Assembly (NCBI GenBank): GCA_965263295.1
Contig: OZ253665.1
Location: forward strand, 1,920,001 to 1,984,000
Source of the DNA: Spirochaetia bacterium
GTDB taxonomy: Bacteria > Spirochaetota > Spirochaetia > SP-2023
Length of the DNA stretch: 64,000 nt
Direction of reading: 5' to 3'
The notes beneath the pieces were generated by a model. That model did no database searches. It worked only from the letters and a program-made list of their open reading frames with translations, and was not told the origin of the DNA. Below are positions 21,288 through 39,929 of the stretch, in pieces. Position numbers and translations under genes: made by a program. The number at the start of each line of letters is the position of its first letter. The stretch's first letter is position 1.

Positions 21288-22439
21288 TTACAGCTTGGTA
21301 TCCGCTAATTTGGTGCCCACTAAAATGGCGCGCGCGGCACGTTCGGCGCTCGCCTCCAATGCCTCGCGACTTTCGCGCAAGGCCGTTTCCAGCGGCATCA
21401 CCCGATCTACCGTGGGGAACAGGGCGTCAATACCGCAGTCAAAAACCGCATGGGCCTGCGCGCCCAGCTCACCGACAATCGCGACGACACTTTTATCTTG
21501 TCGCTTCGCCCATTGAGCCACGCCGACGGGAACTTTACCGTAAACCGACTGGCCATCCAAGCGGCCTTCGCCGGTGAGCACCAAATCCGCCTGAGCCACA
21601 ATCTTGTCAAACTCGATAATGCGCAGAACCGTCTCAATGCCAGAAAGCAGCTTGGCACCGCAAAAACTCAGCAGGCCAAAGCCGAGACCGCCCGCCGCTC
21701 CGGCCCCAGCTTCATTTTGGTGGTCGCAAGCCAAGTCGCGCTTCACCACAGCCGCCAGATGCGCCAGGTTGGCGTCCAGCGTTTCCACCATTTGCGGGCT
21801 AGCTCCTTTCTGCGGCCCATAAACGGCCGAGGCGCCGCGCTCGCCGAGCAGGGGGTTGCTCACGTCGCAGGCGACCAGGATCTCCGTTTCCTGCAAGCGC
21901 GGGTCCGCAGCGCTGGCGTCAATGCGGTCCAGCTCGGCGAGGCTGCCGCCACCGCCCCCGATTTCGCGCGAGTCTTTGTCCAGGAAGCGCAGCCCCAGGG
22001 CCCGCGCCATGCCGACGCCGCCATCGTTAGTGGCGCTGCCGCCGATGCCCAGCATGATTTGGCGGGCTCCCGCATCCAAGGCCGCGCGCAGCAACTCTCC
22101 CGTGCCGTAGGTGTCGGCGCGCAGCGGATCGCGCTCCGCGGCTGCGAGCAAGGGCAGGCCAGAAGCCGCCGCCATTTCGATTACGGCCTTGTCGTTTGGC
22201 AAGTGCCCCCAGAAAGCCTCAACCGCCTGGCCCAGCGGCCCGCGCACCGCCAGCTTTTGCAAGTCGCCGCCGGCGGCCTGCAGCACGGCCGCAACCGTGC
22301 CTTCTCCGCCGTCGGCCACCGCCACAATCTGATAAGTGGCCGCGGGAAAGACTTTGGTAAAACCAGATTGTATGGCCCGCCCGACTTCCCAGCTGGTATT
22401 GGTGCCTTTAAATGAATCCGCCGCGATCAGTATGTGCAT
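21288..22439 (-). CDS. garK: Glycerate kinase (GlxK/GarK family)
   Basis: ADSFKG, ADGGEGT, GGSATNDGG, GAGAAGG, TGEGRLDGQS. Confidence 0.93.
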   Translation of the reverse strand: MHILIAADSFKGTNTSWEVGRAIQSGFTKVFPAATYQIVAVADGGEGTVAAVLQAAGGDLQKLAVRGPLGQAVEAFWGHLPNDKAVIEMAAASGLPLLAAAERDPLRADTYGTGELLRAALDAGARQIMLGIGGSATNDGGVGMARALGLRFLDKDSREIGGGGGSLAELDRIDASAADPRLQETEILVACDVSNPLLGERGASAVYGPQKGASPQMVETLDANLAHLAAVVKRDLACDHQNEAGAGAAGGLGFGLLSFCGAKLLSGIETVLRIIEFDKIVAQADLVLTGEGRLDGQSVYGKVPVGVAQWAKRQDKSVVAIVGELGAQAHAVFDCGIDALFPTVDRVMPLETALRESREALEASAERAARAILVGTKLADTKL

Positions 22440-22688
22440 GTTTTTCTCCTGCCTGCCAGGCCGCAACCTTGGCCGTGTCTAGTTTATATTTAGTTTCGGC
22501 CATGATATACAAAAAGTTTTCCCATGCCTTTTTATATCGTCGTTTTTTTTGCCCGCAAAGCCACCTTTAAGGCCATTGAAGCCTCCCGCCCAAGGTTGCG
22601 GGGCAAGGTTGCGGGGCTTGGCGCTCCCTCCCGGCCCGCAAAAAAATTCCCTGTCCTCAAAATTTCCCGCCCCATTTTTAATTTTTAT

Positions 22689-24989: not shown

Positions 24990-25508
24990 TTAAAACTCTT
25001 CTTTTAATTGTTTTACCCACTCTGTTACTCTGTGTTCTGTCTTATCCGGTTGATTGTCTTCGTCTAGTGGCAGGCCGACAAACATACCATCTATTTCCGC
25101 GGTAGATTGTGCGTAATCGTATCCCTGCTTTGGCCATTTGCCAATAAAATTCACCCCCTTGGCAGAAAGTTCATTGTAAATGATACCAATGGCATCGACA
25201 AAAGTATCCGGATAGCCGGCCTGATCGCCGGTGCCAAACAGAGCCACTTTCTTGCCGGAAAAATCCGCCTGTTTTAACTTGTCCAGAAACTCAGCCCAGT
25301 CGTCCTGAATCTCACCTTCGCCCCAGGTGGAAGAGCCCAGAAGCAAGAAATCCTTGTCATTAATTGAATCTACCGAGCTCTCCCCTACGTTATATGCGTC
25401 GACATTTTCGTCCCCGACTTCTTCCGCCACGAGCTTTTGCAGTTGCTGAGCGATGGTTTCTGTATTTCCAAGGGTTGACCCGTAGAAAATTCCAACCTTT
25501 GTAAACAT
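24990..25508 (-). CDS. fldA: Long-chain flavodoxin
   Basis: YGSTLGNTE, STWGEGE, FGTGDQAGY, GLPLDEDNQ. Confidence 0.95.
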   Translation of the reverse strand: MFTKVGIFYGSTLGNTETIAQQLQKLVAEEVGDENVDAYNVGESSVDSINDKDFLLLGSSTWGEGEIQDDWAEFLDKLKQADFSGKKVALFGTGDQAGYPDTFVDAIGIIYNELSAKGVNFIGKWPKQGYDYAQSTAEIDGMFVGLPLDEDNQPDKTEHRVTEWVKQLKEEF

Positions 25509-25587: not shown

Positions 25588-25777
25588 ATGTTAAGCATTA
25601 GCGACAAAGTCAAGACAACTGATTTAATTTTGCGTATTCCCAAGGTAAATTGGGATAAATTGGGGCAGATTTGGGTAAATTTTCACTTTCACTGCAAAGT
25701 CACAATTTTATAAATTTTTGTTGACAACCCTTATTACCCCGTGCGAAAATATTAGCTTAAACGATCAGGAGGCTCGG

Positions 25778-26455
25778 ATGAAGTATTTTTTAGATAGTGC
25801 AAAACTGGATGAAATTAAATTTGCTTATGACAACTGGGGCATTGATGGAATAACGACAAATCCCAAACATATCCAGGCCAGCGGACAACCCTTGACGAAG
25901 GTTTTGGACAGCCTCGCCAGCTGGGCGGCCAATAATAAGCTGGAAGGCTGGTCCAAGTTTCCGATTTCCATTGAAACTGATCCCCATGAAGAAAATTCAG
26001 AAAAACTGGTTTCCGCCGGCAAGGACTTGGCCAAAATCTCACCGAATTATGTGATTAAGATTGCCTGCACTGAATCGGGTCTAATCGCGGCTCGCAAGTT
26101 GGAGCAACTTGGTATTCGCACAAATGTTACTCTGGTGTTTTCTCCGTCTCAGGCGCTTATGGTCGCAAAAATAGGTGCGCTTTTCGTTTCGCCTTTTGTC
26201 GGCTGGAAAGAGGCAAATGGCGAAGATTGTGGCGATTACATCAAAAGAATTACCGACATCTATAAAAACTACAGTTTTAAAACAGAAATCATCGTTGCGG
26301 CTCTGCGCTCTGCCAAGCAGATCGCCGAAGTGGCCGGATACGGAGCGCATATCACCACTTGCGGGATGCAGGTTTATCGGGACAGTTTCTACCATCCATT
26401 TACCGATTTTGGCCTCAATGTCTTTCGCAAAGCTTGGGATGCGACAGAAAAATAG
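25778..26455 (+). CDS. sqvA: Transaldolase family protein, probable 6-deoxy-6-sulfofructose transaldolase (SqvA/SftT)
   Basis: MKYFLDSA, DGITTNP, FPISIE, TNVTLVFSPSQAL, FVSPFVGWKE, IIVAALR, FTDFGL..FRKAWD closely follow Bacillus SqvA as I recall it; cluster context. Confidence 0.8.
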   Translation: MKYFLDSAKLDEIKFAYDNWGIDGITTNPKHIQASGQPLTKVLDSLASWAANNKLEGWSKFPISIETDPHEENSEKLVSAGKDLAKISPNYVIKIACTESGLIAARKLEQLGIRTNVTLVFSPSQALMVAKIGALFVSPFVGWKEANGEDCGDYIKRITDIYKNYSFKTEIIVAALRSAKQIAEVAGYGAHITTCGMQVYRDSFYHPFTDFGLNVFRKAWDATEK

Positions 26456-26509
26456 GGCAGAGAAACAACCACGGGAAAAATATCATTGGGGTCGAAAGAG
26501 GGCAGCATC

Positions 26510-27643
26510 ATGAATATATTGCGCTATGGGATTATCGGCTGCGGCATGATGGGGCGCGAGCACATCCAGAATCTGGCTTTGATAGATAATACCGAGGTCA
26601 CGGCGCTGTATGAGCCCGACAAGGAGCAGCAGAGGCTTTCGCGGGAAATGGTGCCGAAGGCAAAGGTCCACGACAGTTTGGCGAGTATCCTCAAGGACAG
26701 CAACGTGGATGCCTTTGTCATCGCTTCTCCCAATTTTACTCATGTGGTGATTCTGCAAGAAATTATCAGGAATGATAGCCGGCCGATTCTGGTGGAAAAG
26801 CCGGTATGCACGACGGAGGCAGACTGCTTTCGGCTGCTGGAAATGTGCGCCAATTACCGCGCGCCTATATGGGTGGCGATGGAATATCGTTATATGCCGG
26901 TCTCTCAGCGCCTGCTTGCAAAGGTAGGTGAGGAGAAACTGCTCGGCAATGTCTGCTCGATTTCTATCCGGGAGCACCGTTTTCCTTTTTTAAAAAAAGT
27001 GGGGGACTGGAATCGCTTTAATGCCAATACCGGAGGCACTCTGGTAGAAAAATGCTGTCATTTTTTCGACCTGATTCGACTGCTCAGCCAGGATGAAGTG
27101 GTGCAGGTTTACGCATCGGGGGCCATGGATGTCAATTTCAAGAATGAGCGCTACGCGGGGAAAATTCCCGACATTTTGGACAATACTTTTGTCATCATGG
27201 AGCTGAAGTCTGGCCGCAGGGCTTTTCTGGATCTGTGCATGTTCTGCGACGGTTCCTATTTTCAGGAGGATATTTGCATTGTCGGCGAAAAGGGCAAACT
27301 GGAAGGGCGGATTCCGGGCCCAGAGCGGCTTTGGGCCGTCGACAGCCTGGATGAACTGGGGGCCTCAACTGGATTTGAAGGTAAAACGAGGCCTTCGGAG
27401 TTGATCTACAGTCCGCGCGCGCCAAAAGGCCCCGTCACGGAACTGATTGAAACGGACGAACGCTTGCAGCAGGCCGGCGATCATCACGGCGGCACATTTT
27501 TTCAGCACAAATATTTTTACGAGGCGGTGACCCAAGGCCGCGAGGTTGAAGTGACGCTAGAGGATGGCGTACAGGCGGTCATGATTGGTCTGGCCGCGCA
27601 GGAATCAATTGCGACGAAATCAGCGGTAACGCTGAAGTTATAA
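26510..27643 (+). CDS. Gfo/Idh/MocA oxidoreductase, probable NAD+-dependent sulfoquinovosidase (SqgA, GH188)
   Basis: GCGMMG, EKP, MEYRY, EHRFPFLKKVGDWNRF, VEKCCHFFD, DHHG motifs; directly behind sqvA. Confidence 0.72.
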   Translation: MNILRYGIIGCGMMGREHIQNLALIDNTEVTALYEPDKEQQRLSREMVPKAKVHDSLASILKDSNVDAFVIASPNFTHVVILQEIIRNDSRPILVEKPVCTTEADCFRLLEMCANYRAPIWVAMEYRYMPVSQRLLAKVGEEKLLGNVCSISIREHRFPFLKKVGDWNRFNANTGGTLVEKCCHFFDLIRLLSQDEVVQVYASGAMDVNFKNERYAGKIPDILDNTFVIMELKSGRRAFLDLCMFCDGSYFQEDICIVGEKGKLEGRIPGPERLWAVDSLDELGASTGFEGKTRPSELIYSPRAPKGPVTELIETDERLQQAGDHHGGTFFQHKYFYEAVTQGREVEVTLEDGVQAVMIGLAAQESIATKSAVTLKL

Positions 27644-27676
27644 AACAGTATGAAACGGTAAAGGAGTGCCAAGTTT

Positions 27677-28831
27677 ATGAAAACTTACTTTTTAATATTA
27701 TTATCAATACTAGTGGTCAGTTGTGGGATACAGAAAAAATCCCCGGCTGGCGCGGCAGACGCAGATGGCGCCACGACAGGTGCCCCGTCTGCAAAGAAGA
27801 GTCCGGCGGCGGCAAAAGCTTATGATTACAGCACGACGCCGGCAAATGCGGAGTACGTATTTATTGCATCGCACGATGGCAACCTGGAGGACTATAAGCA
27901 CAAGGCCTTAATTCTCCTCAAGAATACCGTAGAGGCCAATTCAAATGGCCGAATTGGCGTCAAGATTTTCCCCAACGGTCAGTTGGCCAACTCTGTAAAC
28001 GAAAGAATTGATGGACTTGTCCAAGGAAGTGTCGACATCGTCAACACAACCGGTGATGTCAGTGCGTATTGGGAGCCCCTTTCTGTCTTTGACCTGCCGT
28101 ATATGGTCACGGATGATCGGCTGGTTGAAGCGGTTTTTAACGACCCGGAATTTGTCAGCGGTCTGCGAGAAGGGGCCCTGGCCGCGATGAAAAATGCGCG
28201 TTTAATGGTCATTACCAACAGTGGACGCTGGAGAAACTTTGCGACGACCAAAAAACCGGTCAACAATGTCAATGATCTAGCCGGCCTAAAAATCCGCACG
28301 GTACCTTCCAAAGTTCAGCAGCAACTGGTCTCTGCATTGGGGGCTTCTCCGACCAGCATGAACTGGGGAGATCTCTACACGGCCCTGTCCACGGGCGTCG
28401 TTGACGGCACAAAGAATGGCATGGTGGATATTGTAAGCGCCAAGCTGAACGAGAGCCTGAAGTATATCATACTTGACGGGCATGCTTATATGTCGGGCTT
28501 CTGGTGGTTAAATAACGAGAAATTCCAATCTATGCCCACGGACTTGAAGGAGATTATGGTCGATGGCTTTGATGCGTTGAGCTGGTTCATCCGTGAATAC
28601 AATAAATACTCCGAGGCCAGCGCATTTGAAACTTTTAAGGCGACAGGTGGGACGATTTACCGCCCGACGGAAGAAGAATTAGGTCAGTTTAAGGAAAAAG
28701 CGGTCGCCGTAGAACAGTGGTTCAAGGAAAACGTAACAGAAGAGACGCTAGAATGGCTAGACCAGTACAAGGCCGAAATCGCCAGACAGCAAGAAGCTTT
28801 GGCTAGAGTCCGCAGCTTGGAGTTAAGTTAG
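27677..28831 (+). CDS. dctP: TRAP transporter substrate-binding lipoprotein, copy 1
   Basis: VVSC lipobox, FPNGQL, FDLPY, GLKIRT, LYTALSTGVVDG. Confidence 0.92.
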   Translation: MKTYFLILLSILVVSCGIQKKSPAGAADADGATTGAPSAKKSPAAAKAYDYSTTPANAEYVFIASHDGNLEDYKHKALILLKNTVEANSNGRIGVKIFPNGQLANSVNERIDGLVQGSVDIVNTTGDVSAYWEPLSVFDLPYMVTDDRLVEAVFNDPEFVSGLREGALAAMKNARLMVITNSGRWRNFATTKKPVNNVNDLAGLKIRTVPSKVQQQLVSALGASPTSMNWGDLYTALSTGVVDGTKNGMVDIVSAKLNESLKYIILDGHAYMSGFWWLNNEKFQSMPTDLKEIMVDGFDALSWFIREYNKYSEASAFETFKATGGTIYRPTEEELGQFKEKAVAVEQWFKENVTEETLEWLDQYKAEIARQQEALARVRSLELS

Positions 28832-28921
28832 GTATCTGGTTGAAATCTGTGGGAGGCCGCCAATTCTGAATTAGAGTCATAAGCCTTTTTTAGATTATTA
28901 CAGAATCGTTTGGCATAAAAA

Positions 28922-28979
28922 ATATTATTTGGCATTACCGTCTGGCCATTTTGGGCCAGACGGTAATGCCAAATAATAT
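28922..28979. repeat. Perfect 26-bp inverted repeat (6-nt loop)
   Basis: atattatttggcattaccgtctggcc-attttg-ggccagacggtaatgccaaataatat. Confidence 0.9.
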
Positions 28980-29177
28980 AGAGGTTTTTGTCTTTCAAAG
29001 TATAGATGCGATCTAAAACAGATTTAAAAATCCGCAACTTCTGCAATTCATTTACGGGGAAGCAAAATCAATGAGGTAAAAGAGCAGAAAATCGTCATAG
29101 TTTCTGATGCTGTAACGAAATCAGCGGTAACGCTGCAGTTATAAAAGCAGATAAAACTATAAAGGAATGCCAAGTTT

Positions 29178-30302
29178 GTGAAAACTTACTTTTTAATATT
29201 ATTGTCAATGCTAGCGGTCAGTTGTGGGATACAGAAAAAATCCCCGGCTGGCGAAGCAGGCGCAGATGGTGCCACGACAGGCGCCCCGTCTGCAAAGAAG
29301 AGCTCGACGCCGGCAAATGCAGAATATGTATTCATTGCATCGCACGTAGGCAACCTAGAGAACTATAATCACAAAGCCTTAATTCTCCTCAAAAATACCG
29401 TAGAGGCCAATTCAAATGGCCGAATTGGCGTCAAGATTTTTCCCAACGGTCAGTTGGCCAACTCTGTGAACGAAATAATTGATGGCCTTGTTCAAGGGAG
29501 TGTCGACATCGTCAACACAACCGGCGATGTCAGCGCGTATTGGGAGCCCCTTTCTGTCTTTGACCTGCCGTATATGGTGACAGATGATCGGCTGGTTGAA
29601 GCGGTTTTTAACGACCCGGAATTTGTCAGCGATCTGCGGGAGGGGGCCCTGGCCGCGATGAAAAATGCGCGTTTAATGGTCATTACCAACAGTGGACGCT
29701 GGAGAAACTTTGCGACGACCAAGAAACCGGTCAACAATGTCAGTGATTTAGCCGGCCTAAAAATCCGCACGGTACCTTCCAAGGTTCAGCAGCAACTGGT
29801 CTCTGCATTGGGGGCTTCTCCGACCGGCATGAACTGGGGAGACCTCTACACGGCCCTGTCCACGGGCGTCGTTGACGGCACAAAAAATGGCGTGGTGGAT
29901 ATTGTAAGCGCCAAGCTGAACGAGAGCCTGAAATATATCATACTTGACGGGCATGCTTATATGTCGGGATTTTGGTGGGTAAATAACGAGAAATTCCAAT
30001 CTATGCCCACGGACTTGAAGGAGATCATGGTCGATGGCTTTGATGCGTTTAACTGGTTTATCCGCGAATATAATAAGTACTCCGAGGCCAGCGCATTTGA
30101 AACTTTTAAGGCGACAGGTGGGACAATTTACCGCCCGACGGAAGAAGAATTAGGCCAGTTTAAGGAAAAAGCGGTCGCCGTAGAACAGTGGTTCAAGGAA
30201 AACGCGACAGCAGAGACACTGGAATGGCTAGGTAAGTACAAGGCCGAAATCGCCAAACAGCAAGAAGCTCTGGCTAGGGTCCGGAGCCTGGAGTTAAAGT
30301 AG
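29178..30302 (+). CDS. dctP: TRAP transporter substrate-binding lipoprotein, copy 2
   Basis: Close tandem paralog of 27677..28831, GTG start. Confidence 0.92.
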   Translation: MKTYFLILLSMLAVSCGIQKKSPAGEAGADGATTGAPSAKKSSTPANAEYVFIASHVGNLENYNHKALILLKNTVEANSNGRIGVKIFPNGQLANSVNEIIDGLVQGSVDIVNTTGDVSAYWEPLSVFDLPYMVTDDRLVEAVFNDPEFVSDLREGALAAMKNARLMVITNSGRWRNFATTKKPVNNVSDLAGLKIRTVPSKVQQQLVSALGASPTGMNWGDLYTALSTGVVDGTKNGVVDIVSAKLNESLKYIILDGHAYMSGFWWVNNEKFQSMPTDLKEIMVDGFDAFNWFIREYNKYSEASAFETFKATGGTIYRPTEEELGQFKEKAVAVEQWFKENATAETLEWLGKYKAEIAKQQEALARVRSLELK

Positions 30303-30440
30303 TTAGCTGGTTGAAATCCGTGGGAGGCCGCCAATTCGAAATACCATATCAGTTTTTGTCGTTTAAAGTATGAAACAGATTTAAAAATCCGCAACTTCTG
30401 CAATTCATTTACAGGAAAACAAAATCAATGAGGTAAAAGA

Positions 30441-30968
30441 GTGGAAAATCGTCATAGTTTTCTGATGCCGTTAGTCATTTTGACAAAAATTACAAATATC
30501 GCACACAGGTTCTTGAGTTTTCTGGGCTTACATCTTGGTGCAATCTTTATGATCCTGATGACAATAGCTGTATTATTTCAGGTTGTTATACGCTACGTTT
30601 TTTCGAATCCAGTCTCCTGGATTGAAGAAATGTGCATTTACTCCATGTTTTTTTTAACTTTTCTTTTGGCACCCTATATCTTGTTGAATAAGCTTCATAT
30701 CAGCATGACACTGTTATATGATCGCATCAATAAACAAGAACTGGTTTTTGTCGTCGACATATTACTAAATGCTGTAGCTATATATGGCATTTGTACTCTT
30801 ATTCCCAGTATATTTGAAGTTGTATACAACAATTTAAACGTCACCACGACTCAAATGCCATTGACAAAGGGGCAAATCTATATGATCGTGCCCATTTCAT
30901 TCATCTTGATGATAACCATACCTCTTGAGCAGATTTTACTCTGCCTAATCAAGCTTTTAAATAAATGA
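30441..30968 (+). CDS. dctQ: TRAP transporter small permease
   Basis: QVVIRYVFSNPVSWIEE motif, four TM segments. Confidence 0.9.
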   Translation: MENRHSFLMPLVILTKITNIAHRFLSFLGLHLGAIFMILMTIAVLFQVVIRYVFSNPVSWIEEMCIYSMFFLTFLLAPYILLNKLHISMTLLYDRINKQELVFVVDILLNAVAIYGICTLIPSIFEVVYNNLNVTTTQMPLTKGQIYMIVPISFILMITIPLEQILLCLIKLLNK

Positions 30969-30978
30969 GCGATCGAAA

Positions 30979-32265
30979 ATGTCATCACTTATCATATTAA
31001 TATTTATTTTGCTTATGTTCACAGGCTTACCTGTGTTCTTTTCCCTTATTGTGGCTTCAGCTGTAACGATTTTTATATCTGGTGGCGAGCAATTCTTTCC
31101 GATATTTGTCAATAAATTCATTGGTGGCTTGCAAAGTTTTACCCTCTTGGCCCTGCCATTTTTTATATTGGCGGGAAACATCATGGGGCGCGGGGGGATA
31201 ACCTCCAGGATTATTGACTTTTCCAAGTCGATGGTCGGGCATAAAAGGGGAGGTTTAGGTCACGTTGTCGTCCTGTCTTCGACGATCTATTCGGCCCTGA
31301 CAGGTTCGGCCGTTGCAGCCACCTCGGCCATCGGCAGTATGCTGATTCCCAAAATGACAGATGAAGGCTATACAAAGTCATATGCGGCTGCAATTACTTC
31401 AGCAGCGACAGTCTTGGGGCCGATAATCCCCCCTAGTGGTATTATGATCATCTATGCCTTCACAATGAATACCTCAATCGCGTCCATGTTTATTGCGGCC
31501 ATTATTCCAGGTATTTTGTTTTGCGTTTGCTTGATGATTATGAATTACGTCCAATGCCTGAAAAAGGGATTCCTTTTTACCACCCCCAAAGCCTCGAGAA
31601 AAGAACAGTTTGTCAGCTTTAAAAATGCATTTTGGGCATTATTATCTCCAATTATAATTTTAGGTGGCATCTATGGCGGCATCTTTACGCCTACGGAAGC
31701 CGCTGCGGTAGCCGCCGGTTATGCCGCTTTTTCAGCTATCATTATATACCGATCTTTGTCTTTGCAGGGCTTGATTGAAGCCATTAAAGAATCTGTAATC
31801 AGTTCTGCCGCAATTCTACTGCTGATTGCAGCTGCCTCTGGTTTTGGCAGCATGATCAGCCTTACCCCGATATCCAGCCAGATCAGCCATTTATTGTTTT
31901 ATATTACGGAAAATCCTTATGTCATGCTCGCCATTGTCAATGTTCTATTGCTCATTATTGGCATGTTTCTCGATGCCGGCCCCGCGATCTTGATATTCGC
32001 GGCAATCCTGGCCAAACCGTTGACAGACCTAGGTGTCGACCCGGTGCACTTTGGCGTGGTCATGAGTATTAATGTCACAATCGGCTTGGCAACGCCGCCG
32101 ATGGGCCTGGTGCTGTTTGTCGCTTCTAAGCTTTCTGGCGTTTCGTTTGAGAAAATCGCTTATGAAGCTCTGCCATTTATTTTGGTGGAAGTCGCTATTG
32201 TATTTTTAATTTCTTTTTTCCCGGATATTGTCATGTTTTTACCCAGGTTGTTTGGCTTTGCATAA
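30979..32265 (+). CDS. dctM: TRAP transporter large permease
   Basis: LALPFFILAG, GSAVA, IIPPS, FTPTEAA, TPPMG. Confidence 0.95.
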   Translation: MSSLIILIFILLMFTGLPVFFSLIVASAVTIFISGGEQFFPIFVNKFIGGLQSFTLLALPFFILAGNIMGRGGITSRIIDFSKSMVGHKRGGLGHVVVLSSTIYSALTGSAVAATSAIGSMLIPKMTDEGYTKSYAAAITSAATVLGPIIPPSGIMIIYAFTMNTSIASMFIAAIIPGILFCVCLMIMNYVQCLKKGFLFTTPKASRKEQFVSFKNAFWALLSPIIILGGIYGGIFTPTEAAAVAAGYAAFSAIIIYRSLSLQGLIEAIKESVISSAAILLLIAAASGFGSMISLTPISSQISHLLFYITENPYVMLAIVNVLLLIIGMFLDAGPAILIFAAILAKPLTDLGVDPVHFGVVMSINVTIGLATPPMGLVLFVASKLSGVSFEKIAYEALPFILVEVAIVFLISFFPDIVMFLPRLFGFA

Positions 32266-32301
32266 GCCGATATTTTTAAGAATGTTTTTGGAGGTTTGAT
32301 T

Positions 32302-33159
32302 ATGAAGCTTGGTTTTATTGGTTTGGGTATCATGGGAACTCCTATGAGTAAAAATATTAAGCTCAAGGGAAGCGATGTCGAACTCACTGTCTACAGCCGC
32401 AGTACCCAGAGCAAGGATGAGCTGGAGCATATCGGGGCAAAGTTTGCCCGTTCCAGCAAGGAGCTGGTCCAGAATTCAGAAATTGTCTTCACAATGGTGC
32501 CCACAGGGCAAGATGTCGCCAACCTGTACGAAGAATTCATGAGCGAAATTCGCCCCGACCAGATACTGGTGGATATGAGTACCATTGAACCATCCGTCTC
32601 TATAGATTTGGCAAAGAAGGTTCAAGCGGCTGGAGCGCTCATGCTGGATGCTCCGGTGGTAAAGTCCAAGGCGGCTGCGATTGAAGGAACTTTGGGTATT
32701 TACGTCGGCGGGGATGAGGCGGCCTACTTGAAGGTCAAGCCGCTGCTTGAATGTATGGGGAGTTCCATCATTTACATGGGGCAAAATGGCGCCGGTCTCG
32801 TCATGAAGATTTGCCACAACATGCTCGTAGGTGAAATTCAGAATGGAGTGAATGAGATGATTACTTTGGCGCAGAAGTTTGGCATTTCGGTGCCCACTTT
32901 TCGGGAGGCGATCAATGCCGGCGGCGGCAGCAACTTTTACTTGAACAGCAAGGCAGAAAACATCGCCGGCGAGAATTTCCCGACTGCGTTCTCGGTGCGC
33001 AATATGCACAAGGACGTCCACATCGCCCAGGAGTTGTCAAAATCCGTCGGCTTGGTATTGCCCGGCGCTGAAAATGTGGTAGAGGTTTACGAACGAGCTA
33101 TGGAACAGGGTCTGGGTGATTCGGACTTTTCGGCCTCATTTCTGGCCGTAAAAAAGTAG
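32302..33159 (+). CDS. 3-hydroxyisobutyrate dehydrogenase-family reductase, probable 3-sulfolactaldehyde reductase (SftR/YihU-like)
   Basis: GFIGLGIMG, DMSTI, catalytic MKICHN; DAPVVKS in place of DAPVSGG; cluster context. Confidence 0.7.
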   Translation: MKLGFIGLGIMGTPMSKNIKLKGSDVELTVYSRSTQSKDELEHIGAKFARSSKELVQNSEIVFTMVPTGQDVANLYEEFMSEIRPDQILVDMSTIEPSVSIDLAKKVQAAGALMLDAPVVKSKAAAIEGTLGIYVGGDEAAYLKVKPLLECMGSSIIYMGQNGAGLVMKICHNMLVGEIQNGVNEMITLAQKFGISVPTFREAINAGGGSNFYLNSKAENIAGENFPTAFSVRNMHKDVHIAQELSKSVGLVLPGAENVVEVYERAMEQGLGDSDFSASFLAVKK

Positions 33160-33185
33160 TTAAAGATAGTTTTGGGGATCGCGGC

Positions 33186-34253
33186 ATGAACATCACCAAA
33201 GAGCCTTACGGCAAACTGTGGAATACAGAGGCCAGCCTCTATACCTTGACAAATTATCGGGAAAATTGCCGGGAAAATCATCGCGGCATACAGCTAAAAA
33301 TTAGCGATTATGGCGGTATTATAACCCATTTTTTTGTGCCGGATCGCAATGGGGTCGCGCGCGATATCGTCCTCGGCTTCGACAGTTTTGCCGAATACCT
33401 CTCTGGCCATCCGTTTTTTGGCGCTATCGCCGGGCGGTTTGCCAACCGCATCAACGGCGGACGCTTCGCCTTGAACGGCGTTCGCTACCAACTGGCGGCC
33501 CAGTCTGGCGGCAATCACCTGCACGGCGGCGTGCGCGGTTTCGACAAATACATTTGGGACAGCCACATTGAAAATCACCGTGACCGCGTGACGCTGGTAC
33601 TCAGGCATTGTTCTGCAGATGGCGACGAAGGCTACCCAGGCAACTTGCAGGCCGAGGTTCGCTATTCATTGTGCCAAGAGAATCGCTTACAGATTGCCTA
33701 TCGGGCGACGACAGATGAGCCCACCATTGTCAACCTGACGAACCACAGCTATTTCAATCTGACGGGAGACCCGCGGCGCGGCATTGAAGATCACAAGATC
33801 ATGATCAATGCCCAGCGTTTTGTCGCAGTAGACAATGCGCAGATTCCGACCGGGGAGCTGCCCGCAGTTGGCGGGACTTATCTCGACTGCCGCGAGCCGC
33901 GCGAGATGGGGGAAATGTTTGCCGCAGCTCCGCGCGGCATTGTCGATCATTGCTATGTATTGCAGGAACGAGCAGGTTTTCAAGTCGAGGCGGCACAGGT
34001 CGAGGCGGAAAGTAGTGGCATTCGAATGCTCGTCTCAACCGATAATGTCGGAATGCAGTTTTACAATGGCAATAAACTGGGCGAGCAGAAAAAAATTGGC
34101 AAGAATCAAGTGCCATATCCGAAATATGCGGGTTTCTGCCTGGAGACCCAGTGCTGGCCAGATGCCCCCAACCACGCTGGTTTCCCTTCTTGCGTCTTGT
34201 CCCCAGGCGAGAGCTACCGGCACAATGCCGAATTTCGCTTCACAAACTTTTAA
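33186..34253 (+). CDS. galM: Aldose 1-epimerase (probable sulfoquinovose mutarotase)
   Basis: GRFANRI, NHLHGG, GYPGNL, NLTNHSYFNL, CLETQ. Confidence 0.9.
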   Translation: MNITKEPYGKLWNTEASLYTLTNYRENCRENHRGIQLKISDYGGIITHFFVPDRNGVARDIVLGFDSFAEYLSGHPFFGAIAGRFANRINGGRFALNGVRYQLAAQSGGNHLHGGVRGFDKYIWDSHIENHRDRVTLVLRHCSADGDEGYPGNLQAEVRYSLCQENRLQIAYRATTDEPTIVNLTNHSYFNLTGDPRRGIEDHKIMINAQRFVAVDNAQIPTGELPAVGGTYLDCREPREMGEMFAAAPRGIVDHCYVLQERAGFQVEAAQVEAESSGIRMLVSTDNVGMQFYNGNKLGEQKKIGKNQVPYPKYAGFCLETQCWPDAPNHAGFPSCVLSPGESYRHNAEFRFTNF

Positions 34254-34297
34254 TTAGATTTGCCGTCGAGAACTGCAGTTTACGGCGGCGACCCAAT

Positions 34298-34341
34298 ACT
34301 AAAAATGGACTAAAAATGGACCCAAAATGGACCCAAAATGG
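34298..34341 (+). repeat. 11-bp tandem repeat x4 (AC(TA/CC)AAAATGG) overlapping the isomerase RBS
   Basis: actaaaaatgg actaaaaatgg acccaaaatgg acccaaaatgg. Confidence 0.8.
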
Positions 34342-34349
34342 AGAATATA

Positions 34350-35687
34350 ATGCTTCCAAAGATTGGTATCCTGGCCTTGGCACGGGATACTTTTGATGTG
34401 CCCTTCGCGCGGGAAATACACAGTCAGTGCTTGGCGGAACTGCGAAAGCTGTCTATTGAGATTGTGGGCGGCAGCGAACTGCTGTTTGATGCCGCTGCTA
34501 CGCAGCAGGCTCTCAATGAGGTCAACGCCAGCCGGCCGGACTTGTTGGCCATATTGCAGGTGACCTTCACCGATTCAAGTATGACCTCTAAAATTGCAGA
34601 ACAGACCGAAATACCCCTGTTGCTCTGGTCTTTTCCCGAGGAGCGCACTGGCGGGCGCCTGCGGCTCAACTCGTTTTGTGGCATAAACTTGGCCGCACAT
34701 ACCCTGAGCCGCAAAGGCAGGCCGTATCACTACCTCCACGGCCTGGCGAGCGAGCCGCAAGTCCAGAATAAATTTCTCGCCTTGGTGCGGGCGGCACACG
34801 CGCGTTCAAGATTTCACAACGCGACAATGCTTGTGATAGGAGAATTTCCCGAAGGCTTTGATGCCTGTGATTATGACCCCGCAGAGGTGAAAGAGACCTT
34901 TGGCCTAGAATTTCACAATATGCCTGTCTCCCGCTTCATTCAAGAGGCGCGGCAGGTTCCCGAAGCAGTGGCTGCTGCACATCTGGAGGAGCGCAAAAAA
35001 GTTTTAGGGAAGCTGGAACAACTGGAACAGGAACCCTTGCTCAATACCATGAGGGTCTATCATAGACTGGATGAGTTAGTGAAGGAGAAAAACGCGATAG
35101 GCGCCGCCGTCCGCTGTTGGCCGCAGTTTTTTACCGAATGGGGCACGGCGGCTTGCGGGGCGCTGGCCATGATGGGTGAACAAAAAATCCCATGTGGCTG
35201 TGAAGCCGATGTGTATGGAGTTCTGACCGCCAAACTTCTGGCCTTGATTTCCGGTGGTGCGGCCGTCTTTAACACCGATCTTGTGGACTTGGATTTTGCG
35301 AGCAATACTTGCGTTTTCTGGCATTGCGGCCAAGCCCCAGTTCAGATGGCGGATCCTGAAATCCCGCCAGTTGGAACGATCCATACCAACCGCAAGCTGC
35401 CTTTGCTCAGTCAGTTTCCACTCAAGCCCGGACAAATAACCCTGGCGCGCCTGAGCCGGGGAGGGGGGGAGCTCAAGCTGGTTCTGGGACAGGCCGAAAT
35501 GTTGAAGGCCCCCTTGGCCTATGCCGGCACTTCTGGTGTCGCGCGTTTTCCGCGTCCGCTGGAGCAAGTTGTCGATACCTTGATGAATTGCGGCCTGGAA
35601 CACCATACAGCCATTGTCTACGGAGATTACTTGGCAGAATTGAAGGCTTTTGCCCAATTACTGAGTATTCAAACTGTAGAGTTGTAA
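34350..35687 (+). CDS. L-fucose/L-arabinose isomerase family, probable sulfoquinovose isomerase (SqvD/SftI)
   Basis: ARDTFD, TFTDS, GGRLRLNSFCG, AVRCWP, CEADVYG, WHCG, GLEHH. Confidence 0.78.
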   Translation: MLPKIGILALARDTFDVPFAREIHSQCLAELRKLSIEIVGGSELLFDAAATQQALNEVNASRPDLLAILQVTFTDSSMTSKIAEQTEIPLLLWSFPEERTGGRLRLNSFCGINLAAHTLSRKGRPYHYLHGLASEPQVQNKFLALVRAAHARSRFHNATMLVIGEFPEGFDACDYDPAEVKETFGLEFHNMPVSRFIQEARQVPEAVAAAHLEERKKVLGKLEQLEQEPLLNTMRVYHRLDELVKEKNAIGAAVRCWPQFFTEWGTAACGALAMMGEQKIPCGCEADVYGVLTAKLLALISGGAAVFNTDLVDLDFASNTCVFWHCGQAPVQMADPEIPPVGTIHTNRKLPLLSQFPLKPGQITLARLSRGGGELKLVLGQAEMLKAPLAYAGTSGVARFPRPLEQVVDTLMNCGLEHHTAIVYGDYLAELKAFAQLLSIQTVEL

Positions 35688-35694
35688 CGGGATT

Positions 35695-36456
35695 ATGTTC
35701 AGCTCTATACTGGCCTTTTCCGGAATATTCTTGCTGGGTAGCTTTGTCCAGAGTCTTACTGGGTTTGGCCTGTCCCTGGTCTCTGTGTCCCTGCTTTCGA
35801 TGCTGCTTGACCCTAAGCTTGCTGTCCCACTGGCGGCTGTCTACGGTTGCTTCGTCACTGTGCCGCTGGTGATACGCATGTGGCCGAATGTTCGCCACAA
35901 AGAGGCGTTATGCTTAGCCATATGTGCCCTCCCCGGTGCATATCTAGGGGCTGCCACTCTAAAAAATTTGCAATCTGCCTACATTCTGCTATTTATGGGG
36001 GCACTTCTGGTCGTCTCCAGTGTTTATTCCCTGGCATTTAAGCCGGTTCGGTTTGGCATTGACAATCCCGTTCTCAATGCCAGCGCCAATGGTGCGATCG
36101 GTTTTCTCGCGGGAGCGCTGGGAGCTGCCGTGGGAGGCTCTGGCCCCCCCGTTATCCTTTGGCTTTCCGCGCGTCCATGGCAAGCCCGAGAAATTAAGGC
36201 GACCCTGTCTTTTTTCTTTATGATGCAAGCGATTGGCGCCATTATCGTCTTTGCGTTCGACAAGCTGTTAAACATGGAGCTGCTGCGACTCGGGCTGTAT
36301 GCCCTGCCCGGCCTTGTAGTGGGAACAGTCGCCGGGATACTCACTTTTGATTATCTGCACAAGAAGAAGCTGGACTACCATAAAATTGTCCATGCATTGC
36401 TTGTCGTAATTGGCATCAGGTTGATTTGGCGCAGTGTGGTGGAAATTCAAGTCTGA
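35695..36456 (+). CDS. TauE/SafE (TSUP) sulfonate or sulfite exporter
   Basis: QSLTGFG and GGSGPP motifs, about 8 TM segments; last gene of the cluster. Confidence 0.85.
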   Translation: MFSSILAFSGIFLLGSFVQSLTGFGLSLVSVSLLSMLLDPKLAVPLAAVYGCFVTVPLVIRMWPNVRHKEALCLAICALPGAYLGAATLKNLQSAYILLFMGALLVVSSVYSLAFKPVRFGIDNPVLNASANGAIGFLAGALGAAVGGSGPPVILWLSARPWQAREIKATLSFFFMMQAIGAIIVFAFDKLLNMELLRLGLYALPGLVVGTVAGILTFDYLHKKKLDYHKIVHALLVVIGIRLIWRSVVEIQV

Positions 36457-36655
36457 AGACTCTTGTTTAAACTCTTGAAAGTCAAACCTTTCTTGCCTCC
36501 CGTTGTCCTTCCGCCCCTTTTAAATCTTTCCCCTGCCTAAATTTCGTGACTTTTCGCAGTCTTCGTGCCTTTCGTGGTTCCCTCTCATGGGTTCCCGGCC
36601 CGATAACCACGAAAAACACAAAAAAAAGCCCCTCTGTCTTGCAACAGGAGGCGGC
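36071..36655 (+). repeat. Direct repeat, copy 1 (3' half of TSUP gene plus downstream dispersed element)
   Basis: Near-identical to 37676..38247. Confidence 0.92.
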
Positions 36656-36673
36656 ATACTCAAGCTAAAATAA

Positions 36674-36887
36674 ACAAAAATTCATTGGCGAAATCCAAGT
36701 CATATTTCTTTCATAATTGTCGGTTTTAAAACGCTATATTTAACAATTGTAAGGTGCAATATTAAAAATATCGCCATTTCAATGCTTGGTTGCGGTAAAG
36801 GTGGTCTTGATTGGTCAAAAGTTCGTGAGTATACTATGGAAAGAATTTGAAAATATGGGAAATGTAAAAATTATTGTATGCGAATGA
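36674..36887 (+). pseudogene. Frameshifted C-terminal remnant of a macro-domain (DarG/Poa1-like) gene
   Basis: TKIHWRNPSHISFI / IKNIAISMLGCGKGGLDWSKVR / ILWKEFENMGNVKIIVCE across two frameshifts. Confidence 0.65.
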
Positions 36888-36946
36888 TTAAAAATTGAAA
36901 ATACGATATGAAATCTTAATATTGTTTTAATAAAGGAAAGCTTTTC

Positions 36947-37366
36947 ATGAATAAAAATGACATTATGGTTGAGAAATTTAATTCTTACAAAAAAGACAAG
37001 GAATCCAAAGAAATTCACCTTCCAAAAGTGTGGGATTCTTGGTTATTGGCTTACGATAACCGAAAAAGGTACGGTTTCATGCACAACGTTGAATTTCACA
37101 AACTCTGTCGTGAAAGTCGTCAACTTCGGATTGAAGAACTTGAAGAAATTACCGACGAATACCTGAAATCTTCACTTGAAAGTATACTGGAGACAGAAAA
37201 CAGGGTTATGGTGGAGTTAGATAGACGAAATAACGATTTCAAACAAGACTCCGAAGATTCTAAGACTTTAAACGACGAATCTTTAACGGATGATACATAT
37301 TTGGTGAAACTTTCTGAAAGTTTCTTTCACAATTACAGCGAAATTCTTTCAATGATCGATTTTTAA
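36947..37366 (+). CDS. Hypothetical protein in AT-rich insert (possibly truncated)
   Basis: 139-aa ORF with AAGGA RBS; no recognisable motif. Confidence 0.45.
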   Translation: MNKNDIMVEKFNSYKKDKESKEIHLPKVWDSWLLAYDNRKRYGFMHNVEFHKLCRESRQLRIEELEEITDEYLKSSLESILETENRVMVELDRRNNDFKQDSEDSKTLNDESLTDDTYLVKLSESFFHNYSEILSMIDF

Positions 37367-37675
37367 GTTATAAATCGATCATTTTATTGTGAATTATGAA
37401 TGAAAATATGCATTCTACAATCTTGGATATATTATGACGATATTCACGGGTCTATAAAATATTTTTAAGGGTCTTATACTATGAAGAAAGAATATTCCAA
37501 CGATAAAAATAATTTTATCAAAGGTGTATACCCACCAAGTATTGAAGATTTGGGAAAATCGAGAAACGATTAAAATATTCAAGTCATAAAGATGGTTTTT
37601 TCAATGAAAAATCGTTAAGATGGTAAAAGATATTAAATTTTAACAATACTTGACGAAATACCCACACGCATTCAA

Positions 37676-38247
37676 TTCTCAATGCCAGTGCCAATGGTGC
37701 GATCGGTTTTCTCGCGGGAGCGCTGGGAGGCTCAGGCCCCCCGTTATCCTTTGGCTTTCCGCGCGTCCATGGCAAGCCCGAGAAATTAAGGCGACCCTCT
37801 CTTTTTTCTTTATGATGCAAGCGATTGGCGCCATTATCGTCTTTGCGTTCGACAAGCTGTTAAACATGGAGCTGCTGCGACTCGGGCTGTATGCTCTGCC
37901 CGGCTTTGTCGTGGGAACAGTCGCCGGGATACTCACTTTTGATTATCTGCACAAGAAGAAGCTGGACTACCATAAAATTGTCCATGCATTGCTTGTCGTA
38001 ATTGGCATCAGGTTGATTTGGCGTAGTGTGGTGGAAATTCAGGTCTGAAGACTCTTGTTTAAACTCTTGAAAGTCAAACCTTTCTTGCCTCCCGTTGTCC
38101 TTCCGCCCCTTTTAAATCTTTCCCCTGCCTAAATTTCGTGACTTTTCGCAGTCTTCGTGCCTTTCGTGGTTCCCTCTCATGGGTTCCCGGCCCGATAACC
38201 ACGAAAAACACAAAAAAAAGCCCCTCTGTCTTGCAACAGGAGGCGGC
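37676..38247 (+). pseudogene. Direct repeat, copy 2: truncated TSUP gene 3' half plus downstream element
   Basis: Duplicate of 36071..36655, 13 bp shorter near its start; lacks the 5' half. Confidence 0.9.
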
Positions 38248-38286
38248 CGCAACCAGAGAAAGCTCAGTATCCAGCTGAATATTTAG

Positions 38287-39630
38287 TTATGGATTCTTAC
38301 ATGTATTTTTTGAATTCGGAGCATCACATGCCGTGATGGTGATTTCTTTCTTACCATAGAAATAGATATCCTTCTGCTCATTCCCCTTCCAAAGACAGAC
38401 CTCAACTTTAATCCTACCATTATCAACTTTGATATCACCACCACTAGCATCTGCAGAAACAAAATATGATAGACTTTTGTCGTTCGGCCATTGAGGGTGG
38501 TGTCCATCCTCATCCAATAATGGCATGACTATTATACCATTACTCAGGGTAGAAGGGACCGTATAACCCAATTCTTCATGGCTAAAAACTGGAATTTGTT
38601 TACCATTGCGCGTAACATGCAATGGTTGCTGATTTTTGTTAAGTTGCTCAAGTTCTGTAATGGTCTTTGATGATCGGGCATCTGTAAATTTTTCTAGATC
38701 GGGCTGAAAGTTGAAGTAATATACAAGCTCTATGTCTTTTTGTTTTGTAGCACCATCTACACTTACCGCTGCAGTTAAACAAATGTGATCTGTCCCATCG
38801 TCTCGCTGATCAAGCATAGACTTGACTGTAAAACTTAGTGTTGTTGTTGGATCAAGAGATGCTCCAGACTGTACAAAAAATATAGACTCCGGATATCCCA
38901 AGTCTGACAATGGAACAGTAGCATTTGGCTTCACAGAGCGCAAAGCGCTTGGACTTTGGTTAAGTCCTGTGTTTCCTTCAACTGTATTTTTTAGCTTGTC
39001 CAATTCACTTTGGGCTTTGGCCTCGGCTTTGGCTTTGGCCTCCGCTTTAGCTTTGGCCTCGGCTTTAGCTTTGGCCTCAGCTTTAGCTTTGGCCTCGGCT
39101 TTAGCTTTGGCCTCGGCCTTGGCTTTGGCCTCGGCTTTAGCTTTGGCCTCGGCCTTGGCTTTGGCCTCAGCTTTAGCTTTGGCCTCGGCTCTTTTTCGAA
39201 GTTCCAAAGACCCGGTCACTGTGAATCTCAAGCTGCCGCCGCTGGGACTGGTGAATACCAGCTCAATGCTTTCACCATTATCAATATTTTGATCAATACT
39301 TTCACCATTAGCCAGAATTTCACCTCTTGGGCCAACAACTGACAGTTCTGAAATTTTCGCGGTCGCGGATTCGCTCTTAAACATGTCTTTGATTGCGGAA
39401 ATCTTGGTATCGGCGCTCACTCTCGATTCAAAACCATCACTTATGGCAGTCCCACTAGGCAGAAAGGCATTGTTGGAATCGGAAAGAGTGTCTGGCAAAG
39501 CGACTTTAACTGTCGGTACCTTGGGGATATCGCCGCCATCATTGTGGGAGAAAGTCGAAAAATTAGACATCCGGCATTGGCATAATGCCAGACCCAACAA
39601 GATGAGCGACAGAGAAAGCAGTAATTTCAT
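38287..39630 (-). CDS. Putative lipoprotein with (AEAKAK)10 repeat
   Basis: Signal peptide ending LALCQC; GAGGAG RBS; central charged helical repeat. Confidence 0.8.
39010..39189 (-). repeat. 18-bp coding tandem repeat x10
   Basis: Encodes AEAKAK x9 plus AEAKAQ with synonymous variation. Confidence 0.95.
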
Positions 39631-39762
39631 AGTCTAAAGACTCCTCAATGCAAGTTCTCTAATCAATTATAGGCCAGGCGAGTGCTCAAGTACAAGCCGA
39701 AAGCGCTTCCCGTAGTTCATTTTTTGCCTTGTTTGCCCTCCGTGCCACCCGTGGTTCCCTTT

Positions 39763-39929
39763 GAGTCTCTGGCCGAGTAACCACGAAATACACAAAAAAA
39801 GTACGAAACAACACGAAAAATTCTAAAAATTCTAAAGCCCCTCTGCCTGAACGCCCCCGTCGTTTCTCCCACAGCTCCCCAGCCTAAATTTCGTGTCCTT
39901 TCGCTGTCTTCGTGGCTTTTTGTGGTTCC
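39763..39929 (+). repeat. Dispersed CACGAA/TTCGTG element
   Basis: gagtctctggccgagtaaccacgaaatacac... to ...tttgtggttcc, abutting the pepA stop codon. Confidence 0.85.

Follow-up and report, generated by a model that had tools for sequence, protein, structure and literature searches.

A predicted sulfo-transaldolase gene cluster with a GH188-type sulfoquinovosidase and TRAP uptake genes in an uncultured Spirochaetia bacterium

Sulfoquinovose (SQ) is the sulfosugar of plant and algal membranes. Among the described routes of its breakdown, the one closest to the locus reported here is the sulfofructose transaldolase pathway (sulfo-SFT, also called sulfo-TAL), for which section 6 of PMC11968277 gives the combination of PF00923, PF02952, PF03446 and PF14833 as the gene neighbourhood signature. 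Genes for SqgA-type (GH188) sulfoquinovosidases have already been reported in sulfo-SFT clusters that are devoid of GH31, and the supplement of the same work has four Spirochaetes GH188 entries (PMC10755693). The available text of PMC7491151 notes sft clusters in individual Spirochaetes genomes. Sphaerochaetaceae that have the sulfo-TK (sulfo-transketolase) route together with YihQ and SqgA were reported in 2026, according to the available part of that study, and the table of a 2026 review, as far as its accessible text goes, gives sulfo-TAL only in Firmicutes, Thermotogae and Chloroflexi. For the uptake step, binding by RdDctP of Roseobacter denitrificans was measured by surface plasmon resonance, as stated in the accessible portion of PMC12780224. 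In the present study, a cluster of ten co-directional genes on the plus strand of a Spirochaetia genome was analysed. It occupies positions 25778-36456 of the window, that is, of the whole 64,000-nucleotide stretch of contig OZ253665.1 (assembly GCA_965263295.1) that was investigated. With a probability of roughly 0.8, these ten genes would encode a sulfo-TAL/SFT pathway that converts sulfoquinovosyl glycerol (SQGro) to fructose-6-phosphate and 2,3-dihydroxypropane-1-sulfonate (DHPS), the latter being likely excreted.

All ten open reading frames (ORFs) were confirmed and every one of the ten proteins scored above the Pfam cut-off for its family. The cluster was found to hold PF00923, PF02952, PF03446 and PF14833 and hence the full published sulfo-SFT signature. 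The first gene (25778-26455, TAL_FSA family) encodes a transaldolase of 225 aa, which was compared with the solved structures of its family. The score was 296.8 bits to the sulfofructose (SF) transaldolase BmSF-TAL of Priestia megaterium (8bc3/8bc4), against 135.7 bits to the Thermotoga maritima transaldolase 1vpx; no solved TAL/FSA chain other than BmSF-TAL exceeded 135.7 bits, and E. coli FSA scored about 55 bits. The alignment revealed that D6, E66, K94, N116, S138 and W143 (in SPFVGW) of the cluster protein correspond to D6, E61, K89, N111, S133 and W138 of BmSF-TAL. In the latter enzyme D6, E61 and K89 form the catalytic triad, N111 and S133 orient the sugar, and W138, the first residue of the 'WAR' motif, orients the sulfonate (available text of PMC11659671, citing Snow et al. 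2023). The T. maritima enzyme 1vpx has Arg at the position following SPFVG, where both the cluster protein and BmSF-TAL have Trp, and an AALR stretch is common to these two proteins. With its catalytic residues and the Trp-for-Arg exchange kept, the cluster protein is a predicted SF transaldolase of the SftT/SqvA type.

For the second gene (26510-27643, GFO_IDH_MocA family), the ATG at 26510 is the most likely start, as database gene calls give a protein of 377 aa. Its closest solved relatives were 8zn9 (385.5 bits), ArSqgA 8qc3 (349.3 bits) and FlSqgA 8qc2 (341.7 bits); the next chain scored 72.8 bits, and inositol dehydrogenases did not exceed 48 bits. The chain 8zn9 is likely RdSqgA, as its code occurs once in the available text of PMC12780224, where the crystal structure of RdSqgA is reported. 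The list of ArSqgA active-site residues was taken from PMC10755693 (Kaur et al. 2023); for the alignment, the 13-residue tag offset of 8qc3_A was subtracted and the cluster protein was numbered by its 385-aa ORF. All nine listed residues were found to have counterparts. Lys107, Tyr136, Glu189, His193 and His321, which make up the catalytic set of ArSqgA (PMC10755693), correspond to K105, Y134, E188, H192 and H333, and Glu163/164 corresponds to E163. The sulfonate triad of Arg166, Leu170 (acting through its backbone) and Lys172 is represented by R165, L169 and K171. No signal peptide was observed. As the sequence opens directly with the Rossmann motif, the enzyme is expected to be cytoplasmic, and the imported substrate should for that reason be a glycoside. 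The protein is assigned to the SqgA type (GH188) and is a predicted NAD+-dependent hydrolase of SQ glycosides.

The original prediction, made from this stretch of DNA alone, had named the same ten genes and read them as a sulfo-transaldolase pathway. Its gene list was reproduced in full, each ORF lying on the plus strand and belonging to the family named, and its interpretation is upheld for the two decisive enzymes by scores as well as active-site residues. Clustering with non-sulfo transaldolases or with inositol dehydrogenases, the outcome that it gave as fatal to this interpretation, was not found (296.8 against at most 135.7 bits for the transaldolase; 341.7-385.5 against at most 72.8 bits for SqgA).

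The ninth gene (34338-35687, Fucose_iso_C) encodes a protein of the fucose-isomerase superfamily, for which database gene calls begin at 34350. Its sole NCBIfam match was the SftI model NF048012 (E 6.7e-86, 288.7 bits, profile positions 7-441 of 443), and no solved relative was obtained at E ≤0.001. The protein is a putative SQ-SF isomerase that is SftI-like, not a proven SftI or a member of that equivalog. The eighth gene (33186-34253) encodes an aldose 1-epimerase (PF01263, Aldose_epim, 282.6 bits) that scored 254 bits to 1snz and passed the GalM subfamily model NF008277 (288.8 bits, cut-off 240); it is the predicted SQ mutarotase. The last gene (35695-36456) encodes a TauE/SafE-family protein with 104.2 bits to PF01925 (cut-off 32.6) over profile positions 4-237 of 237, and it is predicted to be an SftE-like DHPS exporter.

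The genes of a complete TRAP transporter (tripartite ATP-independent periplasmic) are adjacent in the cluster, and DctP, DctQ and DctM all exceeded their Pfam cut-offs. The solute-binding subunit is encoded twice, by dctP1 (27677-28831, 384 aa, PF03480 194.4 bits) and dctP2 (29178-30302, 374 aa, PF03480 195.4 bits). These are followed by dctQ for the small membrane subunit (30441-30968, PF04290, 74.9 bits) and dctM for the large one (30979-32265, PF06808, 357.2 bits; TIGR00786, 398.7 bits against a cut-off of 268.45). Both DctP proteins are lipoproteins as read from their sequences, with the lipobox LVVSC. The closest solved relative, searched with DctP2, was the isethionate-binding DctP 8t9t at 119.4 bits. 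DctP1 and DctP2 are predicted to be the receptors for SQ and SQGro.

The two dctP genes lie in a tandem duplication of about 1.5 kb, in which 27614-29103 and 29115-30460 are 89-94% identical in nucleotide sequence (repeat families D3, D4 and D5). The duplicated unit runs from the final 30 nt of sqgA through the complete dctP gene and its spacer into the opening bases of dctQ, and a remnant of this dctQ start is present after the first dctP copy. DctP1 and DctP2 are distinguished by 22 substitutions and by an indel of 10 aa in the linker. The codon differences between the gene copies, 43 of them synonymous and 22 non-synonymous, suggest purifying selection on both. At the N-lobe positions D67V, D72N, K74N and R110I, copy 1 has the orthologue consensus and copy 2 is changed. 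A single dctP copy was observed in the genomes G001, G003 and G004. In the spacer between dctP1 and dctP2, the terminator-like scan found a hairpin with a perfect 20-bp stem at 28927-28974, reported on the minus strand with a T tail. The assembly was checked with Logan contigs from four runs. Since no listed contig piece of these runs spans the repeat at 29045-29535, the tandem order rests on the single-contig assembly. The unique contig pieces supporting the order are 28704-29045 (runs X1 and X4) and 29535-30204 with 30175-30402 (run X4). In run X5, with a depth of about 2, no cover was seen in two bins (28920-29687), and 11 nt inserted at 30370 bring back the spacer sequence of copy 1. This pattern might come from a strain with one dctP, at a depth too low to use.

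Taken as a pathway, the cluster would work as follows. Periplasmic SQGro, and also SQ, would be captured by the two lipoprotein receptors, and the import of SQGro would fall to DctQM. The cytoplasmic SqgA would release SQ and glycerol via transient oxidation at C3, and the mutarotase and the SftI-like isomerase would convert SQ to SF. The transaldolase would move the C1-C3 unit to glyceraldehyde-3-phosphate, giving fructose-6-phosphate and leaving sulfolactaldehyde (SLA). From SLA, the seventh gene product, of the 3-hydroxyisobutyrate dehydrogenase (HIBADH) family, would form DHPS by reduction with NAD(P)H, and this product would leave the cell through TauE. Half of the SQ carbon would be used in this way, and the rest would likely leave the cell as DHPS.

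Within this scheme, DHPS as the end product is the least certain element, and fermentation with DHPS excretion is a prediction. The reductase gene (32302-33159, PF03446 NAD_binding_2 and PF14833 NAD_binding_11) encodes a beta-hydroxyacid dehydrogenase that is 30% identical to E. coli YihU and keeps the catalytic Lys171 and Asn175. The pathway may be sulfo-TAL and yet this enzyme may act on a different three-carbon aldehyde such as tartronate semialdehyde; SLA would then be exported, converted to sulfolactate by oxidation elsewhere, or reduced by some unlinked enzyme. The scores agree with this alternative, as the protein resembles YihU no more closely than it does tartronate-semialdehyde or hydroxyisobutyrate dehydrogenases: its top matches were tartronate-semialdehyde reductases (150.6 bits to 1vpd; 206.3 bits to TIGR01505), ahead of YihU (106 bits) and of the YihU model NF012005 (142.9 bits, cut-off 348). 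The sulfonate pocket of YihU is formed by the side chains of Asn174 and Ser178 together with the main-chain amide at residue 123 (PMC8006165), and the two side chains are replaced by His and Val in the cluster protein. The alternative is further favoured by a glycerate kinase gene 3.3 kb upstream of the cluster (21288-22466, minus strand, PF02595, 477.7 bits) and by three of seven spirochaete loci (L015, L017 and L018; the comparison is described below), in which no reductase gene was found within the fetched stretch. Against it, the gene lies inside the operon, with a reported 30 nt between dctM and its start and 26 nt from its end to the mutarotase gene, and it stays in the cluster in G001, G003, G004 and L016 with 52-63% identity. 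PF03446 and PF14833 are part of the published signature, SftR in anaerobic Firmicutes is a homologue from the YihU family as well (accessible text of PMC7491151), and the only strong aldehyde dehydrogenase of the genome belongs to the iol operon. The His and Val at the YihU 174 and 178 positions were invariant in all five cluster-linked spirochaete orthologues that were aligned. On the operon position, the retention in four related clusters and the fit to the Pfam signature, the enzyme is predicted to be an SLA reductase making DHPS; a different role for it is considered unlikely.

Along with these features of the reductase, several results weigh against the assignment of the cluster to SQ. 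The isomerase score of 288.7 bits is below the 700-bit equivalog cut-off of the SftI model, and this model also matched weakly in two control genomes. The mutarotase is far more GalM-like than YihR-like, with 23% identity to E. coli YihR (E 1e-5) and 28.4 bits to the YihR-type model NF011719, for which the cut-off is 251. The ligand of the DctP receptors was assigned from gene context. The Pfam and NCBIfam scans found no regulator gene in or beside the cluster, and there was no RNA run among the eight runs returned for this stretch, which was present in Logan contigs of runs from three studies. Because the isomerase, mutarotase, reductase and DctP all score under the equivalog cut-offs of the SQ-named models, the cluster might be thought to handle another anionic or 6-modified sugar glycoside, its likeness to SQ enzymes being family membership without the same substrate. 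Such a substrate is very improbable in view of the sulfonate-contacting Arg and Lys kept in SqgA and the Trp that replaces the phosphate-binding Arg in the SF transaldolase; FlSqgA was moreover inactive on glucosides and a glucuronide (PMC10755693), and the operon closes with a TauE-family exporter. An ordinary pentose-phosphate or inositol neighbourhood, with a housekeeping transaldolase, an inositol dehydrogenase and a dicarboxylate TRAP transporter, is what the generic public names would imply, and the second gene product does match TIGR04380 (iolG) at 123.3 bits, below the cut-off of 355 bits. This explanation was already disfavoured and its probability is close to nil: the genome has a separate TalB-type transaldolase (1746804-1747697, PF00923, 300.6 bits) and, elsewhere, an iol operon that carries Gfo/Idh/MocA genes of its own, and the score gap to the SQ enzymes is more than 2-fold for the transaldolase and more than 4-fold for the Gfo/Idh/MocA protein. 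The sulfo-TAL pathway for SQ is preferred as the function of the cluster.

The distribution of the cluster was analysed in related genomes. It was present in two of three genomes of the same genus (G001 and G003), with identities of 72-74% for SqgA, 79% for the transaldolase, 70% for the isomerase and 63% for the reductase; the mutarotase gene lies within the cluster in both. The genome of another family of the same order showed a rearranged version, with an SqgA-like protein of 35% and an isomerase-like protein of 22% identity. A pattern scan based on the DctP alignment, with one genome per species, returned eight loci, of which seven belong to Spirochaetia/Spirochaetales metagenome-assembled genomes (MAGs), three of them the relatives above, and one to a gammaproteobacterial Woeseiaceae MAG. 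Within the fetched stretch, SqgA-like and SF-TAL-like genes were found beside DctP in all seven spirochaete loci; the reductase was seen in four of the seven, an isomerase homologue in four, the mutarotase in two and TauE in two (one partial). The Woeseiaceae locus has SqgA-like and isomerase-like genes near DctP. In an even sample of 401 Spirochaetota genomes, the own genome included, SqgA-like proteins (E ≤1e-40) were detected in 5 genomes, the other four hits being 33-37% identical. SF-TAL-like proteins (E ≤1e-55) were detected in 15 genomes and in 11 of 153 genera, and the other spirochaete hits were 51-62% identical. The two genes are adjacent by coordinates in G065 and G395, as in the own genome. 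Within the sampled Spirochaetota, the close SqgA type was confined to genomes of the own genus and a few MAGs.

The nearest named relatives outside the spirochaetes were Desulfofustis/Desulfocapsaceae MAGs (58-62% for SqgA, 50-51% for the isomerase). Relatives of these two proteins could be paired by equal values of the longest contig (73710, 106316, 844995 and 24403; proteins P0043/P0162, P0008/P0156, P0066/P0154 and P0041/P0142), one pair being named Desulfofustis sp., which suggests that SqgA is combined with an SftI-like isomerase in Desulfobacterota too. The database names of the relatives are generic, namely 'Gfo/Idh/MocA family oxidoreductase', 'myo-inositol 2-dehydrogenase' and 'L-fucose isomerase-like protein'. 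The claim in the original prediction that generic annotation would hide such a cluster is in accordance with these names, and its guess of a spirochaete host agrees with the two same-genus genomes carrying the cluster, both of which are Spirochaetia MAGs. The combination was also called unusual there. This is right as to rarity in the phylum sample (SqgA-like in 5 of 401) and does not hold for the components, each of which has been published, namely sulfo-SFT clusters that contain SqgA, GH188 members and sft clusters from Spirochaetes, and the association of TRAP with SqgA. The literature searches made here found no paper on sulfo-TAL, GH188 and TRAP occurring together in Spirochaetia, although the supplementary genome lists of PMC12780224, PMC13219744 and PMC7491151 (Table S2) may contain it. 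As a tentative extension, which we regard as doubtful, a distinct sulfo-TAL cassette might be common to Spirochaetia of an anaerobic, marine type and perhaps also to Desulfobacterota, for example Desulfofustis. It would have TRAP entry of SQGro, GH188 and a His174-type reductase branch binding the sulfonate unlike YihU, and the duplicated DctPs found here would be specialising for different ligands, for example SQ and SQGro.

The remainder of the genome was searched for enzymes bearing on the fate of SQ and DHPS. The genome is a single contig of 2.41 Mb and is 92.6% complete by marker genes. No GH31 was found in it (PF01055, 0 matches, with the control positive in 6 of 14 genomes), and the absence of a GH31 gene noted for the cluster in the original prediction extends genome-wide. 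The family search gave no glycyl-radical enzyme of the pyruvate formate-lyase (PFL) kind in the genome, and so no DHPS cleavage of the HpsG/HpfG type is expected; COX1 was likewise not found by family search. The lack of GH31, PFL-like enzyme and COX1, together with an aldehyde dehydrogenase only in the iol operon, would fit a non-respiring fermenter that excretes DHPS. An FGGY kinase (279.6 bits) was present, which could be a glycerol kinase. DUF4867 (SftX) had no match in the genome, but this search was positive in no control genome and shows little. A candidate second sulfosugar cluster near 2.33 Mb, with TAL_FSA, Aldedh and Gfo/Idh/MocA genes, was rejected when Pfam showed it to be the iol operon. 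This operon (G000:C1:2324000-2343900, locus L033) has IolB-like, thiamine-pyrophosphate-enzyme IolD-like and IolE-like genes, Aldedh and three Gfo/Idh/MocA genes. A further gene of the operon, for a 359-aa TAL_FSA-family protein (11179-12258 of L033, minus strand), is found where an aldolase might be expected. Horizontal transfer of the sulfo-TAL cluster was considered on composition and rejected, as no signal was seen (48.8% G+C in the cluster against 49.4% in the genome).

The ten genes apparently form a single operon. Eight of the nine intergenic gaps measure 7-138 nt, and the ninth, between dctP1 and dctP2, measures 346 nt. A consensus scan gave as the top site of the region a promoter-like sequence at 25721-25750 on the plus strand (TTGACA, 18 nt, extended −10 TG-GAAAAT, 10 of 12 matches), which is a sigma-70-like consensus match only. 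An AGGAGG ribosome-binding site lies between it and the transaldolase ATG at 25778. The TTG at 25718, from which the longest version of the first ORF starts, is really the −35 hexamer of this promoter-like site. The transaldolase start is accordingly assigned to ATG 25778, behind AGGAGG, where the alignment to solved transaldolases begins too.

At the downstream end, a direct repeat of about 585 bp, consisting of the 3' part of tauE and the DNA beyond it, was found at 36071-36655 and 37676-38248 with 98-100% identity (families D2, D6, D7 and D8). The copies are separated by an AT-rich insert of 1020 bp at 36656-37675, with 30.2% G+C against 49.4% in the genome. The insert has an ORF of 139 aa (36947-37366) for which no Pfam or NCBIfam match was found, and the second repeat copy holds a remnant ORF of the tauE 3' end (37650-38048). 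In runs X1 and X4, which come from two studies, contigs cross one or both of the insert junctions. Two short segments of the repeated DNA beyond tauE occur a third time, with more divergence, at 39762-39800 and 39876-39919. Between the second copy and these segments, on the minus strand, a 447-aa predicted lipoprotein without a Pfam family (38287-39630) has a long run of KAEA-type repeats, which are encoded by a tandem array of 18-nt units (38978-39226). Upstream of the cluster, the interval from the glycerate kinase gene is occupied by small family-less ORFs and a flavodoxin gene (24990-25508, minus strand).

Every part of the cluster is of a known kind, and it reveals no new pathway or mechanism. 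Its novelty is modest and lies in small variant features, the His174-type reductase and the duplicated lipoprotein receptor. The analysis provides confident annotation at residue level for genes that are publicly called 'oxidoreductase', 'inositol dehydrogenase' and 'fucose isomerase-like', and adds an uncultured genus of Spirochaetia to the SQ degraders that likely produce DHPS. Candidates are offered, too, for two poorly characterised steps, namely a TRAP receptor pair for SQ/SQGro and an SLA reductase unlike YihU, in which the residue aligned with YihU Asn174 is an invariant His.

The comparison with known systems puts the cluster nearest to the SftI-SftT-SftR-SftE system of Eubacterium rectale and Clostridium symbiosum (Frommeyer et al. 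2020; available text of PMC7491151), with which it shares the core chemistry, the Pfam set and the predicted DHPS product. It differs from that system in that a GH188 SqgA replaces the GH31 SftG. The predicted sugar:cation symporter in the B. aryabhattai cluster, as annotated in the accessible text of the same source, is replaced here by a TRAP transporter with two lipoprotein receptors. Further differences from the E. rectale and C. symbiosum system are the presence of a GalM-type mutarotase, the lack of a regulator gene in the cluster and the spirochaete host.

The glycosidase resembles the characterised SqgA/GH188 enzymes (PMC10755693; RdSqgA, PMC12780224) over its full length, and its occurrence in an SQ cluster without GH31 is in accordance with the complementary distribution described by Kaur et al. 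Unlike those enzymes, it is known from its sequence alone. The TRAP genes recall SqoKLM of Marinomonas (PMC10507154) and the TRAP transporter with RdDctP of R. denitrificans (PMC12780224), where, in the available text of both sources, DctPQM stands beside an SqgA-containing, GH31-free SQ cluster and is proposed to import SQ/SQGro. Those transporters feed the oxygen-dependent, desulfonating sulfoquinovose dioxygenase and monooxygenase pathways (sulfo-SDO and sulfo-SMO) according to the same portions of text, whereas the transporter here would feed sulfo-TAL. The receptor also differs from SqoK and RdDctP, by comparison of descriptions only, in being a tandem-duplicated lipoprotein. The sulfo-EMP system of E. 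coli (EMP, Embden-Meyerhof-Parnas; yihO-yihW, with YihU, YihR, YihS and YihQ) has the same series of glycosidase, mutarotase, isomerase, C-C cleavage, SLA reductase and exporter. In the spirochaete cluster, however, cleavage would be carried out by a transaldolase and not by a kinase and an aldolase, and the isomerase has the SftI type of fold family and not that of YihS. The reductase, at 30% identity to YihU, is without the pocket side chains of that enzyme, and the mutarotase is related to YihR at the level of 23%.

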